A stretch of 64,000 bases of DNA from Candidatus Pacearchaeota archaeon. Its GTDB lineage: Archaea; Nanobdellota; Nanobdellia; Pacearchaeales; GW2011-AR1. The DNA lies in contig JBAZMK010000001.1 in NCBI GenBank assembly GCA_041649755.1, forward strand, positions 66,826 through 130,825. Direction: 5' to 3'. Shown here in pieces: positions 10,045 through 25,162 of this stretch. Numbering within the stretch: the stretch's first letter is position 1; each line of letters starts with the position of its first letter. Below the pieces are notes generated by a model. It did no database searches and was not told the origin of the DNA. It worked only from the letters and a program-made list of their open reading frames with translations. A program made the translations under genes and the position numbers.

Positions 10045-10746
10045 ATGTTGGTGAAGCCTTATATAAAAAAATACGGCGAGTTTTCTGGCTTAGTCGCTTG
10101 GATAGTAGACGGCAATTATATAAGAAATAATTTAGAGATTAATTTCACTAATTTTGGTCAGTACCCTCAATTTAAGTTCATCCCCAAAAATGAAATTTGG
10201 ATTGATAAAGAGAGAAGTCCTGGAGAGGAAAAGTTTTTCATAGATTATATGCTTGCACTACATCGCCTTATTTCCCGAGGGATTAAAAAAAAGGAGGCAG
10301 TTGAACTTGCTGAGAAAATAGAGAAAAAAGAGAGGGCAAAAAAAGAATTAATAAAAAAAGAATTCGGTCTAAGCAAAGATTATCCCCAGTTAATTAAGAA
10401 GATTCATAAAAAGAAAATTATTTCTTACAGCAAAAAGATTAAGGTATGGGTTGTTAACGGAGAAATTGTGCGAAGTTTTTTGTTTATAGATTTTACAGAA
10501 GGAGGTCATGATAAGGTGTATTCTTTTATACCTAAGGGAGAGATATGGATTGATGACGACCTTTCGTTAAAAGAAAGAAAATTCGTTCTTCTCCATGAAA
10601 TTCACGAAAGGAATTTGATGGCTAAGGGTATGGAATACGAATCTGCACATAATGATTCAAGCAAAATAGAGCTTTATTGTAGAACGCATCCGAAGGAAAC
10701 AGACAAGAAAATAAGTGCAGAGATTAAGAAACTAAAGTCCAACTAG
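10045..10746 (+). CDS. Hypothetical protein with an internal ~60-aa duplication; second copy carries an HExxH-like motif (LLHEIHE)
   Basis: Repeat 1 VAWIVDGNYIRNN...FKFIPKNEIWIDKERSPGEEKFFIDYMLALHRLISRG aligns with repeat 2 KVWVVNGEIVRSF...YSFIPKGEIWIDDDLSLKERKFVLLHEIHERNLMAKG. Confidence 0.5.
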   Translation: MLVKPYIKKYGEFSGLVAWIVDGNYIRNNLEINFTNFGQYPQFKFIPKNEIWIDKERSPGEEKFFIDYMLALHRLISRGIKKKEAVELAEKIEKKERAKKELIKKEFGLSKDYPQLIKKIHKKKIISYSKKIKVWVVNGEIVRSFLFIDFTEGGHDKVYSFIPKGEIWIDDDLSLKERKFVLLHEIHERNLMAKGMEYESAHNDSSKIELYCRTHPKETDKKISAEIKKLKSN

Positions 10747-12782
10747 ATGTTTCCTCTTTTTAGCAAATCTTTTAGTTTTGCTTCGTTTGCTTCCCTGTCT
10801 TTTATGTTATAAACCTCATAAACTGGGTTTTCCCCAATTTCTTTTAATTTCCTAACTGATAGATCTCTTATTCCTCTTTTCCTTATGTTTTCTGAGACTA
10901 AAATCTTTCCAGAGTCTGAATCTGATATTCTTTTCGCCAGCGAAATTGTGTTTCCAACCCCTGTATACTCAAGTTTACCTTGATTTTTTGATGCGATGAT
11001 GTCCCCTGAATTTACTCCCATGTTGAATTCTATTTTTTCTTTTGACCTTTTATTATATTCACATAATGCCCCCCACAAGGCAAATGCAACTTTTGAAGCA
11101 AGAACTTCATTGGCGTAAGTTTTTGTAACTACTGGTGAAAAAATGATAAAGATGTAATCGCTCTTCCAATCTACTAAACCCCTCTTTGTATCCAAGTCTC
11201 CGATTAACTTTACCAAAGATTCTTTAGCCTGAGTCCCTAAAGTCCCATAATTCTTTATACTTAATGAAATAATTGCTGATGGATATTTCTCTCCCTTTAA
11301 TACTAGGGCTGATTCTGCACCTGATGTTTTTCCCGAGGTTAAATCCAAGGTTTTTTTATCTGATTTACTTTTTTCATATACAATGTCTTCCACTGATTTT
11401 CGCTTTCCTGAACCTCTGAACTTATCCAAAATTTTACTAAGAAAGTTCTTTTCCTCATGATTGTTTTTCTCATTGAGGTTTGTGGTCTTTTGAGATTTTC
11501 TTAACATAACTATTCCTACTCCACCGAATAAAACTATCAGAAATACCCATAAAACAAGATAGTTTCTAAAACTGCCTTTTTCCAAATCATCGATGGAAAT
11601 TGCTCTTCCTGTAAGCAAAACCTGTTTTGACAGGGAGCTTTCTCCGTCTTCAACTAAAACCTCATATTCTCCTTCAGGTGCTCCCAGATTAAACTTTCTT
11701 TGTTCACCCATTTCCATATTTAGATTTAATTCTTTTGTTTCATTTCCTATCTGGACGCTTATAGTCTTGTTGTAACGGGCATTACCAACATTGGTTACGA
11801 TAAGAACGGAACCTTCAATCTCTAAGTTAACTTTTTGAAGTTCTTTCATTTCTATTTCTCTTTCTTCTCCGAGCTTTTCAAAGAAAACTCTTAATTTCCA
11901 GATTCCTGCAGTAGCGTTTGTAGGAAAATTTACTTTAAAATAATCTTTTGTATTCATTAAGACCTCTCTTTCTTCGCCTGAAGGAGAGATTAATTTTCCC
12001 GAAACTTTTCCACTCATTTCTTTTCCCGATTGGTCAAAGACTTCGGCACTTATTGTAAATTCTCCTCCCGGCGTTGCTACATTATCGGATAATGTTAATA
12101 CGAGTGAAGTAGCTACTTGATTTATGTCAAAAGAAATTCTGGACGAACCAGTGTTTAGCCTTCCCTTGCTTCCTAAATCATAAGCAGTTATGTTAAGATA
12201 ATATGTTCCAGCTTCTAATGTTTCAGAAAGACTAAAAGTGTTCATCATCTGCCCAGATTCAACAGCCTTACTAAAGAAGGATGCTTCAGTAACCTCAATG
12301 AACCCATTAAATAAATCCCCATTTGCTTTTACAGCGTCAACCTTTAAGGTTATTGCTTCTTTTGGATTATAAGATTTTTTATCTAGCGTCGGGGTTATAA
12401 AGATTTTATCTGTGATAGTGAAAACTTTTGTAGAGACTGCATTTTGACCTATATAAGCAATAATCTGACAATTTCCTATAATATCTGTTATGTTTTCTAT
12501 CTCAAGGTCTTCCTCATCTAAAATTTTGAAGGGAAGTTCATATACCGAATCTTTCTCTGTCGGAAAAGACCTTGCAGAAACTTTCGCAAGATTAATTGTT
12601 TTGTTGCTACAAACCAAGTCTATGTTAAAATTCCCACTTTCTTCCCCTCTTACTCCACTTACAGTTACATATAATTTATCTTTTAAATTGTATGTTCCTA
12701 AAGGTTCGGAAATAGACATTTCTGCGAAAACTAATGAAGTTAAAAAAAGCATAATAAGTATTAATCCCAATCTCTTTTTCAT
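10743..12782 (-). CDS. Membrane-anchored protein: signal peptide, large extracellular domain, one TM, cytoplasmic class III nucleotidyl-cyclase-like (CHD) domain
   Basis: Signal MKKRLGLILIMLFLTSLVFA; TM YLVLWVFLIVLFGGVGIVML; C-terminal FNMGVNSGDIIAS...YTGVGNTISLAKRISDSDSGKILVSENI matches the CHD consensus (GxhxGxvvaG...Y.v.G..VN.AsR.e....g.I.vSe). Confidence 0.6.
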   Translation of the reverse strand: MKKRLGLILIMLFLTSLVFAEMSISEPLGTYNLKDKLYVTVSGVRGEESGNFNIDLVCSNKTINLAKVSARSFPTEKDSVYELPFKILDEEDLEIENITDIIGNCQIIAYIGQNAVSTKVFTITDKIFITPTLDKKSYNPKEAITLKVDAVKANGDLFNGFIEVTEASFFSKAVESGQMMNTFSLSETLEAGTYYLNITAYDLGSKGRLNTGSSRISFDINQVATSLVLTLSDNVATPGGEFTISAEVFDQSGKEMSGKVSGKLISPSGEEREVLMNTKDYFKVNFPTNATAGIWKLRVFFEKLGEEREIEMKELQKVNLEIEGSVLIVTNVGNARYNKTISVQIGNETKELNLNMEMGEQRKFNLGAPEGEYEVLVEDGESSLSKQVLLTGRAISIDDLEKGSFRNYLVLWVFLIVLFGGVGIVMLRKSQKTTNLNEKNNHEEKNFLSKILDKFRGSGKRKSVEDIVYEKSKSDKKTLDLTSGKTSGAESALVLKGEKYPSAIISLSIKNYGTLGTQAKESLVKLIGDLDTKRGLVDWKSDYIFIIFSPVVTKTYANEVLASKVAFALWGALCEYNKRSKEKIEFNMGVNSGDIIASKNQGKLEYTGVGNTISLAKRISDSDSGKILVSENIRKRGIRDLSVRKLKEIGENPVYEVYNIKDREANEAKLKDLLKRGNI

Positions 12783-12868
12783 TCTTTAAATATGACAAGA
12801 TACTATTTAAATATTATCGTAAAGCAATCTCATAAACAAATTTATAAATGTCGGGGGGTTAGAGTTTT

Positions 12869-13969
12869 ATGGCAAATAAGGTGACTCCGTGGGAAGTTTC
12901 CGGAGAGGTAGATTATGACAAACTTGTGAAAGAATTTGGGACGATTAAGATTTCTGACAAGATTTATGAGAGAGTAAAAAATTGCCATCCTCTTCTTAGA
13001 AGGAAAATCTACTTTTCACATAGAGATTTTGATAGGTGGCTTAGTGCTTTTGATGAAGGAAAAAAGGTTTCTGTGATAACTGGTAGGGGTCCTTCTGAAA
13101 AAATGCATATTGGACATCTTGTTCCTTTGCTTGTGGCTAAGTCACTTCAGGAGAATTTTGACTGCCCTGTTTTTATACCTATTTCTGATGATGAGAAGTT
13201 TTTTGTAAATGAGAATATAACATTTGAGCAGTCTTTAAAGTTCTCTTATGATAATATTTTAGATATCATAGCCCTTGGTTTTGACCCTGAAAAAACATTT
13301 ATTTTTGAAGATTTCGTTTATACAGACATTTACAAGTATGCGGCAAGGATAGCAAAAAGAATAACTTACTCTACGGCTAAGGCGACGTTTGGGCTTTCTC
13401 CTGAGAAGAATATTGGCTGGTCTTTTTATCCTGCAATGCAGGCTGCACATATTCTGTTCCCCCAGTTCTATTTAAAGGAAAAGCACATTTCGGTGGTTCC
13501 TGTTGGAATTGACCAAGACCCTTTTATAAGGTTGACAAGAGATATTGCTAACCATTCTGATTTTAAACTTGAAAAACCTGCGGCGATTCACGCTAAATTT
13601 ATTCCTTCACTATATGGGGGGATAAAAATGTCATCAAGCGGAGAAGGGGTTATCTTCCTTTCTGATGACCCAAAAACCGTAAAGAAAAAAATAAACAAAT
13701 ATGCTTTTTCCGGCGGTCAGGCAACAATTGAAGAGCACAGAAAGAAAGGGGGAAACGCCGAAATTGATGTTTCCTTTCAATATTTAAAAATGTTTTTTGA
13801 ACCAGATGATAATAAACTTGAAGAAATTAAAAAGAAATATGAGTCGGGAAAGATGCTTTCAGGGGAGTTGAAAGGAATTTTAATTGAGAGAATAAATGAA
13901 TTCTTAAAGGAACACCAAAAGAAGAAGAAAGAAGCTGAAAAAAGAATTGACCAGTTTTTGATTAAATAA
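12869..13969 (+). CDS. trpS: Tryptophanyl-tRNA synthetase (archaeal/eukaryotic type)
   Basis: TGRGPSEKMHIGHLVP (HIGH), KMSSS (KMSKS), N-terminal VTPWEVSGEVDYDKLVKEFG typical of archaeal/eukaryotic TrpRS. Confidence 0.85.
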   Translation: MANKVTPWEVSGEVDYDKLVKEFGTIKISDKIYERVKNCHPLLRRKIYFSHRDFDRWLSAFDEGKKVSVITGRGPSEKMHIGHLVPLLVAKSLQENFDCPVFIPISDDEKFFVNENITFEQSLKFSYDNILDIIALGFDPEKTFIFEDFVYTDIYKYAARIAKRITYSTAKATFGLSPEKNIGWSFYPAMQAAHILFPQFYLKEKHISVVPVGIDQDPFIRLTRDIANHSDFKLEKPAAIHAKFIPSLYGGIKMSSSGEGVIFLSDDPKTVKKKINKYAFSGGQATIEEHRKKGGNAEIDVSFQYLKMFFEPDDNKLEEIKKKYESGKMLSGELKGILIERINEFLKEHQKKKKEAEKRIDQFLIK

Positions 13970-13980
13970 CTCTTAAAAAA

Positions 13981-14862
13981 TTAATATTCCTGAATAGAAG
14001 TTGGTTGCTCTTGCTGAGGGGTTTGTTGAACTATTGGTTTTTGGGGTTGTTGAGAGGGCGCTTGTTGAATAGGTGTTGGGAAGCTGGTTACTTCTTCTGC
14101 ACTTTGCTGGGGTTCTACATCTGTATAATCCCCTTCTATCGCGGGAATTTCCCCAATAACAAGCGAAGGGTCAATAACCTCAATTCCTTTTTGCGTTATT
14201 TTCATTCCAATAGCATTCCTCTCGTGGGAGGTTCGTCTCATTTTGGCTATTCTTAAGGCTCTATCTCCAGCTCCAGCGATTCCTGATTCATAAAAAACCG
14301 TAACAGAGTCTGATAAGAATTTTAGCACGTCTGTTTTTGCTAGTTCGCTATTTCCCCCATTCATTTCACTTTCAAGACTTTCATCGGCATAGATACAAGT
14401 CACTTTTAGTCTTTTCATTAAAGAAGATAATTCAAAAATAGTTTGTCTTACTTTTCCGAGGTCGTCAAGATTCATAGCAAGAACTGAGATTGGGTCAAAG
14501 CAAATTCTCCTTATATCATTTTTAGAAATTATTTTAGTCAGTTCTGATTTTAATTCTTCAATTGATGTCTGTGGAGCGAATCTCATAAATTTTATTTTTC
14601 CCATATTATTTAATTTAGTAAAATCCCAGCCGTAAACCATTCCATCTTTTAATATCTCCACGACGTCGGGTTCAAATGAGCAGTAAAGCCCGTTTTCGTT
14701 AAACCTCGTTGCACCATTCCATAAGAATTCTAAGAGAAAAGTAGTTTTTCCTGAACCTGGACCCCCAACAAGAAGATTATCAGAATTTCTTACAAATCCC
14801 CCTTGACAAAGGCGGTCAAAACCCTTTATACCAGTAGGACACCTCTCTATCAAATCACTCAT
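13981..14862 (-). CDS. KaiC/RadA-like RecA-superfamily ATPase with a C-terminal Gln/Pro-rich low-complexity tail
   Basis: Walker A GGPGSGKTTF, Walker B-like CIYADES; tail PQQSAEEVTSFPTPIQQAPSQQPQKPIVQQTPQQEQPTSIQEY. Confidence 0.75.
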   Translation of the reverse strand: MSDLIERCPTGIKGFDRLCQGGFVRNSDNLLVGGPGSGKTTFLLEFLWNGATRFNENGLYCSFEPDVVEILKDGMVYGWDFTKLNNMGKIKFMRFAPQTSIEELKSELTKIISKNDIRRICFDPISVLAMNLDDLGKVRQTIFELSSLMKRLKVTCIYADESLESEMNGGNSELAKTDVLKFLSDSVTVFYESGIAGAGDRALRIAKMRRTSHERNAIGMKITQKGIEVIDPSLVIGEIPAIEGDYTDVEPQQSAEEVTSFPTPIQQAPSQQPQKPIVQQTPQQEQPTSIQEY

Positions 14863-14932
14863 AAAAATAATTATACTTTCTTATTTATAAACCATTCGGT
14901 TAACTTTAAAAAGAATTCTGATATATAATTGT

Positions 14933-16645
14933 ATGAAAATATTAAGTTTGCATTGTGACTATTTGAAATTTAAGCCTTTGAAAAAAGCGATTAAAAATCC
15001 AGAAGAATTGAAAGGTAAAGAAGAGGTCAATGTTAAAGAACCTTTAGGTGTTTTTGTTGCTGTTGAGAAAATTGATGAATTAAACCCTGACAAAGCTTCT
15101 GATGAGCTCGTTAAAAATGTTTTAGAAATTCTAGAAAAAACTGGAGCGAAAAAAGTCGTCCTTTATCCCTATGCCCATCTCTCCTCAAATTTAGCCGACT
15201 CCGATACAGCTCTTCTCGTCTTAATTGAGTCTGAAACTAAATTGAAAAAAAAGAAGATTGAAGTTTATCGTGCCCCTTTTGGCTATTATAAAGAATTTGA
15301 ATTGAAATGTAAGGGCCATCCTCTGGCGGAATTATCAAGAGAAATTGGCGGAGAAGAAAAGGTGATAGAGATAAGCAACAAAAAAGAAGATTATGATGAA
15401 AAAAAACTCTTAAGGCAGATTGCTAAATCAAAACTTGACACTTCAAAACTTAAAGAAAATGACCACAGAATTTTAGGGCAGAAGCTGGATTTGTTTTCTT
15501 TTAACGAAGTCGCACCCGGAATGGTTTTCTGGCATAATAAAGGATTAATCATTTATAACGAGCTTGCTGAATTTTGGAGAGAAGTCCATAGAAGAAATGG
15601 CTATCAGGAGATAAAAACACCTCAGATAATGGATTCAAAGGTTTGGAAAATTTCGGGTCATTGGGACAAATATAAAGAGAATAATTTTGTTACTAATTAT
15701 GAGAATCGGGATTTTCTTGTGAAACCTATGAGTTGCCCTGGCGGATTGCTTGTTTTCAAAAACTCTCCTAAATCTTACAAAGACCTTCCTTTGAGGGTTG
15801 GAGAGCTTGGAGTTGTCCACAGGTGTGAATTATCAGGAGTTTTGGCAGGGCTTTTTAGAGTTATTCAATTTACACAAGATGATGCTCATGTTTTTTGCAC
15901 AGAGGAGCAAGTGGAAGATGAGGTTTCAAAATTGATGGATTTAGTTGATTTTGTATATAAGAAATTTGGTTTTGAATACAAGGTGGAATTGTCTACCCGT
16001 CCTGAAAAAAGGATTGGTGATGAGAAAATTTGGGACTTGTCAGAAAGTATCTTAAAGAAAGTTCTTGAGAAGAAAAAGATTAAATTTAAGATTAACGAAG
16101 GGGATGGGGCTTTTTATGGTCCAAAAATTGATTTTCATTTAACAGATTCTTTAAAAAGAACATGGCAGTGCGGAACTATTCAGCTTGACTTTTCAATGCC
16201 AGAGAGGTTTGAAATATCTTATATTGATAAAGATAATGAAAAGAAACGTCCAGTTATGCTTCATAATGCTATTTATGGCTCATTAGAGAGGTTTGCAGGG
16301 ATACTATTAGAGCATACTAATGGAGCTCTTCCTCTTTGGCTGTCTCCTGTTCAAGTGCGTGTTTTGAGTTTTACTGACAGAAATATAGAAAAGGCAAAAG
16401 AATTTTTTGATAAATTGAAGGAAGAAGGAATTCGGGCAGATTTTGATTTTGACTCAACAACTGTTAATGACAAAGTAAGAAATGCAGAAATGATGAAAAT
16501 TCCTTATATTATAACTATCGGAGATAAGGAAGAAGAAAAAGAGACTCTTGCTGTTCGTGAAAGGGGAGAAAAGAAACTGAGATTTGACGTTAAATTGGAA
16601 GAATTTGTTAAAGAAGTAAAAGAAAAGGTTTCTAAAAGAATTTAG
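14933..16645 (+). CDS. thrS: Threonyl-tRNA synthetase, archaeal type (N-terminal archaeal editing domain)
   Basis: Class II motif 2 HRCELSGVLAGLFRVIQFTQDDAHVF, motif 3 region, C-terminal anticodon-binding domain; N-terminus MKILSLHCDYLKF resembles the archaeal ThrRS editing domain. Confidence 0.9.
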   Translation: MKILSLHCDYLKFKPLKKAIKNPEELKGKEEVNVKEPLGVFVAVEKIDELNPDKASDELVKNVLEILEKTGAKKVVLYPYAHLSSNLADSDTALLVLIESETKLKKKKIEVYRAPFGYYKEFELKCKGHPLAELSREIGGEEKVIEISNKKEDYDEKKLLRQIAKSKLDTSKLKENDHRILGQKLDLFSFNEVAPGMVFWHNKGLIIYNELAEFWREVHRRNGYQEIKTPQIMDSKVWKISGHWDKYKENNFVTNYENRDFLVKPMSCPGGLLVFKNSPKSYKDLPLRVGELGVVHRCELSGVLAGLFRVIQFTQDDAHVFCTEEQVEDEVSKLMDLVDFVYKKFGFEYKVELSTRPEKRIGDEKIWDLSESILKKVLEKKKIKFKINEGDGAFYGPKIDFHLTDSLKRTWQCGTIQLDFSMPERFEISYIDKDNEKKRPVMLHNAIYGSLERFAGILLEHTNGALPLWLSPVQVRVLSFTDRNIEKAKEFFDKLKEEGIRADFDFDSTTVNDKVRNAEMMKIPYIITIGDKEEEKETLAVRERGEKKLRFDVKLEEFVKEVKEKVSKRI

Positions 16646-25042: not shown

Positions 25043-25159
25043 GGTGAGCCCGTAGCTCAGCCAGGTAGAGCACTGCTCTTATATGACTGCGATTCAATGA
25101 ATTGTAGATTTTCTTCAGTCGAAGGAAGGCAGGGGTCCTGGGTTCAAATCCCAGCGGGC
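25043..25159 (+). tRNA. tRNA with a 43-nt intron at the canonical 37/38 position; anticodon reads TAT, so tRNA-Ile(UAU)
   Basis: Hand-folded cloverleaf: acceptor GAGCCCG/CGGGCTC, D stem GCTC/GAGC with GG in the loop, anticodon stem CTGCT/GGCAG, T stem CTGGG/CCCAG with TTCAAAT loop, discriminator A, no encoded CCA; exon 1 25043-25080, intron 25081-25123, exon 2 25124-25159. Confidence 0.75.
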
Positions 25160-25162
25160 TCA

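Follow-up and report, generated by a model that had tools for sequence, protein, structure and literature searches.

We analyzed a stretch of 64,000 nucleotides from a Candidatus Pacearchaeota archaeon (assembly GCA_041649755.1, contig JBAZMK010000001.1, positions 66,826 to 130,825; here, the window, with a G+C content of ~34%) and examined one gene in it, which encodes a 679-aa receptor-like membrane protein. From the N terminus, the protein consists of a signal peptide, an ectodomain, one transmembrane helix, a variable linker, and a C-terminal cyclase homology domain (CHD) of class III. Judging from the sequences of the protein and its relatives, we think it likely that this is a type I receptor- or adhesin-like protein whose CHD derives from class IIIb cyclases and has become a pseudo-enzyme, one that probably dimerizes and offers a basic/polar site to an anionic ligand or a partner protein. 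The coding sequence is complete, and overlap on the opposite strand is limited to short, mechanical open reading frames (ORFs) of 60 and 99 aa. Its product is identical to the NCBI entry 'MAG: adenylate/guanylate cyclase domain-containing protein [Candidatus Pacearchaeota archaeon]' (MAG, metagenome-assembled genome); the CHD itself is therefore already recognized by NCBI automatic annotation.

A cyclase homology domain beneath a macroglobulin-type ectodomain

Taken as a single sequence, the protein matches the Pfam profile Guanylate_cyc (PF00211) with 22.1 bits against a gathering cutoff of 21.9 (E = 1.3e-4; aa 546 to 635, profile positions 62 to 153 of 183), which is marginal alone, and a single-sequence phmmer search of the PDB gave E = 0.02 to AC2-C2. 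Comparisons at the level of the family are much firmer. PF00211 is matched by 32 of 38 aligned homologs (best 8e-7), and a profile of the family's domain retrieved Cya2 (2w01, 2.7e-5) and CyaB (3r5g, 1.1e-4) from the PDB, along with Ma1120, soluble guanylyl cyclase (sGC) beta1, and AC2-C2. When we compared the family alignment with six bona fide bacterial CHDs, all plasmid-encoded, using hhalign, the two aligned over the entire domain (164 columns, probability 96.8%, E = 3.9e-10).

The predicted structure points the same way. We modeled aa 474 to 679 with AlphaFold2 (AF2; predicted local distance difference test [pLDDT] 76.3, predicted template modeling score [pTM] 0.70). The elements follow the order beta1-alpha-alpha-beta2-beta3-alpha3-beta4-beta5-alpha4-beta6-beta7-beta8, with one extra helix at the C terminus. 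A Foldseek search of the PDB with this model returned 175 matches with E ≤ 1e-3, and every one of the best 50 is the catalytic domain of a class III cyclase (E = 4e-12 to 4e-9, probability 1.0, template modeling [TM] score ~0.6 to 0.68). Because most aligned homologs match PF00211, the hhalign result is strong, and these best fold matches are class III only, the homology is secure despite the marginal single-sequence match: the C-terminal domain is truly homologous to class III CHDs. The CHD core proposed in the initial annotation is thereby established by a significant profile match as well as by fold.

The best sequence-profile matches are to the class IIIb group formed by Synechocystis Cya2 (2w01), Pseudomonas aeruginosa CyaB (3r5g), and Spirulina CyaC (1wc0), which have the same fold (Foldseek E = 3e-11 to 3e-10, TM score ~0.6 to 0.68). 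The archaeal domain has in common with these enzymes the GE(K/R) before beta1, GG, GxHxG, YTxIG with the class IIIb Thr, AxR, and VSe motifs. It differs from them in that the first metal-binding Asp (Me1), the purine-binding Lys, the transition-state Asn, and the Arg of beta4 are replaced, in its extra C-terminal helix and its AES-LVLKGEK lead-in, and in an identity of only ~17 to 19%.

A Kyte-Doolittle scan found two hydrophobic segments only, at aa 1 to 26 and aa 404 to 431. The first, with MKKR followed by a hydrophobic core and VFA/E, resembles a signal peptide, and we infer cleavage after VFA and before E; the second is flanked by Lys/Arg on its cytoplasmic side. All six N-X-S/T sequons lie within aa 21 to 405, as does Cys58/Cys105, the sole invariant Cys pair of the family, and exactly two hydrophobic segments are present in 159 of 183 full-length relatives. 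Since these observations all agree, aa 21 to 403 are predicted to lie outside the cell and aa 428 to 679 in the cytoplasm, whether segment 1 is cleaved or serves as an N-in anchor. The initial annotation had called for a signal peptide, an extracellular region of ~400 aa, and a single transmembrane segment, with the CHD in the cytoplasm. Each of these features holds: hydropathy and a conserved N-terminal pattern mark aa 1 to 20, the extracellular region spans ~380 aa, and the domain falls on the inner side of a receptor-like type I topology.

AF2 predicts the ectodomain (aa 21 to 403, pLDDT 89.4) to be all-beta, with approximately four tandem beta-sandwich domains. Its best Foldseek matches in the PDB are macroglobulin (MG) domain arrays from complement C3/C4/C5, alpha2-macroglobulins, CD109, and Escherichia coli ECAM (E ~2e-11 to 5e-10); the global TM scores of these matches are low because the domains are differently arranged. 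Pfam MG2 (PF01835) is matched by 20 of 38 family members (best 9e-8). We therefore add to the earlier reading that the ectodomain is, according to the model, an array of macroglobulin MG2-type beta-sandwich domains. Modules of this type generally serve in the binding of proteins or surfaces. The fold is common to the alpha2-macroglobulin/complement C3 family and bacterial ECAM/YfhM; compared with alpha2-macroglobulin and C3, the archaeal protein has about four domains only, is too short for a thioester domain, and lacks that domain and its CGEQ motif, the bait region, the CUB domain, and the receptor-binding domain. No thioester motif or domain occurs anywhere in the 679 aa, in which Cys is found only at positions 58, 105, and 574. 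Mean column identity is 63% for the ectodomain and 62% for the cytoplasmic domain, a similarity which argues for purifying selection on both ends of the protein.

Between the membrane and the CHD, the linker that leads to the short conserved AES-LVLKGEK motif preceding beta1 is 31 to 98 aa long in 80 of 81 homologs and poorly conserved, and the first 21 modeled residues (aa 474 to 494) have pLDDT values <50. In the cytoplasmic part we saw neither a kinase-homology domain nor a HAMP domain, nor any clear coiled coil. At the other end, the C-terminal helix (~aa 663 to 676) contains L670 (98%) and R676 (96%); the profile-profile alignment to canonical CHDs stops short of it, at aa 661. The overall logic of an ectodomain, a single transmembrane segment, and a C-terminal cytoplasmic CHD is that of the receptor guanylyl cyclases (GC-A/NPR-A; 9bcv, 9bcs), and GC-A is among the fold matches. 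Unlike GC-A, the archaeal protein has no kinase-homology domain and no evident coiled coil or signaling helix, its linker is variable and modeled with low confidence, its ectodomain is an MG-type beta-sandwich array rather than a periplasmic-binding-protein-like fold, and its catalytic residues are degenerate.

Catalytic positions and the function of the domain

We mapped the catalytic positions by profile-profile alignment, which agrees with HMMER alignments to Cya2 and CyaB and with the secondary structure of the AF2 model, in which S508 ends beta1, D542 lies in the beta2-beta3 turn, and S614 and R618 lie on alpha4. Residues were counted in 81 close homologs and 215 wider relatives (Table 1).

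Table 1. Residues at canonical class III cyclase positions in the protein and its relatives
Canonical position	Residue here	Close homologs	Wider relatives
First metal Asp (Me1; end of beta1, FxDIxGFT)	Ser508 (in LS508IKNYGTL)	S51 K11 N8 A4 R3 H2 V1	K106 S61 N17 R11 A8 H7 E2
Second metal Asp (Me2; beta2-beta3 turn, GD)	Asp542	D61 E15 N3 G1 (D/E 76/80)	Acidic 73%
Purine-binding Lys (or Glu; four residues before second Asp)	One-residue deletion near D538/W539	No Lys	No Lys
Class IIIa Asp / IIIb Thr	Thr607	80/80	198/215
Transition-state Asn (alpha4)	Ser614	Never Asn (n = 80)	Asn 16/215
Transition-state Arg (alpha4)	Arg618	R70 K9	R108 K102
Arg of RxGxHxG strand (beta4)	Asn587		G/N/S, never Arg

By six residue criteria for a competent cyclase, the protein fails three (Me1, purine Lys, and transition-state Asn). 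Me1 is acidic in 0 of 80 close homologs and in 2 of 215 wider relatives, and the D538 position, which flanks the deletion of the purine Lys, holds D/E/N in close relatives. Thr607 aligns to the Thr of DYTxIG in canonical CHDs. Class IIIb is partly defined by a Thr that replaces the substrate-binding Asp (PMC2613629), and through the invariance of Thr607 in close homologs the alignment assigns the domain class IIIb ancestry. The initial annotation had noted an apparent substitution of the first metal-binding Asp and had raised the possibility of a pseudo-cyclase or regulatory domain. The alignment places Ser508 at that position, and with the loss of Me1, the purine Lys, and the transition-state Asn extending across the family, the residue data favor this as the best reading.

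Could the domain nevertheless be an active nucleotidyl cyclase with a non-canonical center, for example using one-metal chemistry with D542 and E490, E498, D538, or E559, which would make it a receptor-type cyclase in DPANN archaea? In favor of this, the protein still has Me2, the class IIIb Thr, and the transition-state Arg, and strong purifying selection acts on the domain. Activity does not always require the full canonical set: Ma1120 works with Ala in place of the transition-state Asn (PMC4215837). The makers of archaeal cAMP are still to be named (PMC10249747). Given Ma1120, loss of the Asn is not decisive alone, and the losses of Me1 and the purine Lys carry the argument. In the class IIIb cyclase Slr1991, the D137A/D181A double mutant of the metal site is catalytically inactive (PMC2613629). 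Of the 215 relatives, 213 have a non-acidic Me1 (Lys in roughly half) and 27% a non-acidic Me2; none has the purine Lys or the beta4 Arg, and no single protein combines the canonical residue set. We consider an active cyclase very unlikely. A salt bridge that replaces the metal site was also considered and rejected: a basic Me1 and an acidic Me2 have no positive association in the 215 relatives, and the trend is in fact negative (odds ratio 0.24, phylogeny-confounded).

Class III cyclases function as dimers whose interface brings together residues of both chains, and the domain might instead be, as in the mammalian C1/C2 or the sGC alpha/beta pair, the non-catalytic half of a heterodimeric cyclase whose second CHD is encoded elsewhere in the genome. 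Degenerate halves of this kind are known. The mammalian adenylyl cyclase C2 domain (1azs_B, 1cul_B) and sGC beta1 (3uvj_B, 4ni2_B), both among our sequence and fold matches, likewise are CHDs that lack metal Asp(s), and as non-catalytic partners they complement the catalytic subunit with Lys, Asp, Asn, and Arg. The archaeal protein fits neither half: without Me1 it is not like C1, and in contrast to C2 and sGC beta1 its family also lacks the Lys and Asn. A search of all six-frame ORFs of the 64-kb window with canonical and family hidden Markov models found no second CHD, and 52 of 53 loci represent a single family copy per genome. Such a heterodimer therefore seems extremely improbable.

At other positions the domain is highly constrained. 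Ten residues are near-fixed among the 215 relatives: N558 (213), N577 (212), T553 (206), K499 (194), K617 (190), E490 (189), N511 (186), K534 (185), E559 (181), and K510 (175). Drift of the catalytic positions while this largely polar and basic set stays fixed suggests selection on a non-catalytic function, and it is the pattern expected of a repurposed pseudo-enzyme.

These residues also bear on whether the protein is chiefly a structural surface protein or adhesin, in which the MG stalk is the functional part and the CHD only oligomerizes or anchors, with no sensing or signaling. MG/Ig-like arrays are a usual feature of adhesins and surface proteins, the fold matches of the ectodomain include an ice-binding adhesin, and the linker is variable and probably disordered. 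The protein also evolves much faster than its housekeeping neighbor: at locus L051, the neighboring tryptophanyl-tRNA synthetase (TrpRS) is 74% identical to that of the window and the receptor 37%. However, conservation is as high in the cytoplasmic domain as in the ectodomain, and near-invariant residues of the former (N558, N577, T553, K617, K499, and E490) are polar or charged, which argues for a specific binding site rather than a mere oligomerization plug. We regard a purely structural role as rather unlikely.

The reading that we prefer, a receptor- or adhesin-like protein with a pseudo-enzyme domain, would work as follows. A stalk of approximately four macroglobulin-type beta-sandwich domains would be displayed outside the cell and followed, through a flexible linker of variable length, by a cytoplasmic fold of class III (IIIb-derived) nucleotidyl cyclases. 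Because Me1, the purine Lys, the transition-state Asn, and the phosphate-binding Arg of RxGxHxG in beta4 are lost, this module most likely does not cyclize nucleoside triphosphates. It would probably pair two chains, as CHDs do, and present a non-catalytic surface or pocket that is conserved and strongly basic (K499, K510, N511, K534, T553, N558, N577, K603, Y606, T607, and K617). This site may bind a partner protein in the cytoplasm or an anionic ligand, which could be a metal-free nucleotide, and through such binding the cell surface and the cytoplasm could be coupled in either direction.

Several points weigh against this interpretation. The CHD model is of moderate confidence (pLDDT 76), and the variable, apparently disordered linker offers no obvious rigid path for a transmembrane signal. 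Retention of D542, Thr607, and Arg618 means that nucleotide binding or residual or unusual chemistry may persist, and Ma1120 is an example of a cyclase that stays active although the transition-state Asn is lost. In addition, the search for a partner CHD covers 64 kb of the genome only.

A bolder version would make the family a new, DPANN-wide type of transmembrane signaling or adhesion receptor, in which what remains of the active site, Lys-rich and devoid of metal, binds a nucleotide or other anionic metabolite, perhaps derived from a host, and so links contacts made by the MG stalk to the cytoplasmic state; in its radical variant, the protein would be a non-canonical cyclase and the first archaeal source of a cyclic nucleotide to be identified. 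We view this version as a long shot.

Family distribution and genomic neighborhood

A word-indexed search recovered 81 full-length homologs (36 to 100% identity). When 1.84 billion cluster representatives were searched exhaustively with a profile, 241 clusters (50% identity) had E ≤ 1e-30 and 579 had E ≤ 1e-10; the best 150 cluster matches are proteins of ~630 to 850 aa with the C-terminal domain, or fragments of such proteins. In GTDB species-representative genomes, we found 53 loci, all but two of them labeled Pacearchaeota, Woesearchaeota, Nanoarchaeota, or 'archaeon'. The two come from bins with bacterial labels, L049 (Patescibacteria, 3.4-kb contig) and L061 (Izemoplasmatales, 2.1-kb contig), and since these contigs are very short, both are probably binning errors, which is likelier than transfer to bacteria. 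The family is thus large and confined to DPANN archaea of the Pacearchaeota/Woesearchaeota type. One MAG, CSMAG_2002, has two copies (L011 and L055), located on different contigs and 53% and 49% identical to the query; these are either true paralogs or the product of a mixed bin.

The receptor gene lies in a neighborhood of housekeeping genes (Table 2). A Trp/Tyr-type tRNA synthetase gene is found within 3 kb upstream in 40 of 55 loci, divergently oriented and mostly ~90 nt from the receptor start, and a KaiC-like ATPase gene comes next in 30 of 55. Together with the receptor gene, the divergent synthetase, the KaiC-like ATPase, and a threonyl-tRNA synthetase (ThrRS) on alternating strands form a block of conserved synteny (loci L001, L003, and L010 to L062); the ThrRS carries the archaea-specific editing domain PF08915, as would be expected in a DPANN archaeon. 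The KaiC-like ATPase ends in a Gln/Pro-rich, low-complexity tail of ~60 aa and has a weak PADLOC match to mad8 (E = 1.2e-3), which is probably meaningless. At L051, L047, L053, and L058, the synthetase is 74 to 77% identical to that of the window and the receptor 37 to 49%, indicating much faster evolution of the receptor.

Convergent and divergent flanks on alternating strands amount to conserved synteny and provide no evidence of co-transcription or functional linkage, and we rejected functional inference from an operon. A Pycsar-type defense cyclase (PycC) was likewise rejected: neither the receptor nor its downstream neighbor has a PADLOC match. The divergent intergenic region measures 86 bp and contains two TATA-like boxes, the second of which, the palindromic TTTATAAA, lies ~25 nt from the ATG of the synthetase. 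This arrangement suggests that the receptor and synthetase genes are separate leaderless (or short-leader) transcription units.

Downstream, a convergent ORF overlaps the stop codon of the receptor gene by 4 nt. Its 233-aa product is an internal tandem duplication of an ~80-aa module (37% identity, E = 8e-16), with an HExxH-like motif, HEIHE, in the second copy that is degenerate in the first, and it has no Pfam or PADLOC match. Farther along the window, a 117-nt Rfam tRNA match (56.7 bits, full model 1 to 71), at which ARAGORN reports none, is probably an intron-containing archaeal tRNA.

Table 2. Features of the receptor gene, its product, and its surroundings in the window
Feature	Positions	Strand	Basis or remark
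Receptor-like coding sequence, complete	10743..12782	minus	ATG start, 679 aa + TAG stop; ORF listing
Putative signal peptide, aa 1-20	12723..12782	minus	MKKR n-region, hydrophobic core, VFA/E; hydropathy + N-terminal pattern kept in family alignment
Ectodomain, aa 21-403	11574..12722	minus	AF2, Foldseek, Pfam MG2
Transmembrane helix, aa 408-427 (YLVLWVFLIVLFGGVGIVML), then RKSQK on cytoplasmic side	11502..11561	minus	Hydropathy
Cytoplasmic linker, aa 428-488, Lys/Ser-rich	11319..11501	minus	Family alignment, hydropathy, AF2
Degenerate class IIIb CHD, aa 489-660, including family-specific AES-LVLKGEK lead-in	10803..11318	minus	Pfam, profiles, hhalign, AF2/Foldseek
Family-specific conserved C-terminal helix, aa 661-679 (DREANxAKLKDLLKR)	10746..10802	minus	Family alignment, AF2
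TATA-box-like element TTTAAATA, ~25 nt upstream of receptor ATG	12804..12811	minus	Sequence reading
Divergent intergenic region	12783..12868		
Second TATA-like box	12841..12848		Palindromic
Class I tRNA synthetase, Trp/Tyr type (PF00579), divergent neighbor	12869..13969	plus	Context only, no functional link shown
KaiC/RecA-like ATPase	13981..14862	minus	PF06745, E = 6e-49
Synteny block	12869..16645		Synthetase, KaiC-like ATPase, ThrRS
Convergent downstream ORF	10045..10746	plus	233 aa
tRNA match	25046..25162	plus	Rfam

Implications for DPANN archaea

Reviews describe class III cyclases as very rare in archaea and state that no archaeal enzyme making, degrading, or binding cAMP has been identified; cyclic-nucleotide signaling in archaea is poorly understood. 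Our literature searches on pseudo-cyclases and Pacearchaeota cyclases found no published description of the family or of its degenerate site and MG stalk. Because of the degenerate residue pattern, the label 'adenylate/guanylate cyclase domain-containing protein' should not be taken as evidence for cAMP or cGMP synthesis in these archaea.

The genome-reduced DPANN archaea maintain a large, conserved, lineage-specific family derived from class III cyclases and fused to a surface-exposed MG stalk. Very small genomes have kept a gene of this size, which points to an important role, and the cell surface, the site of contact between DPANN archaea and their hosts, is a plausible place for it. Should ligand binding persist in the degenerate pocket, prokaryotes would have in this family a clear case of a pseudo-cyclase receptor of the homodimer type.

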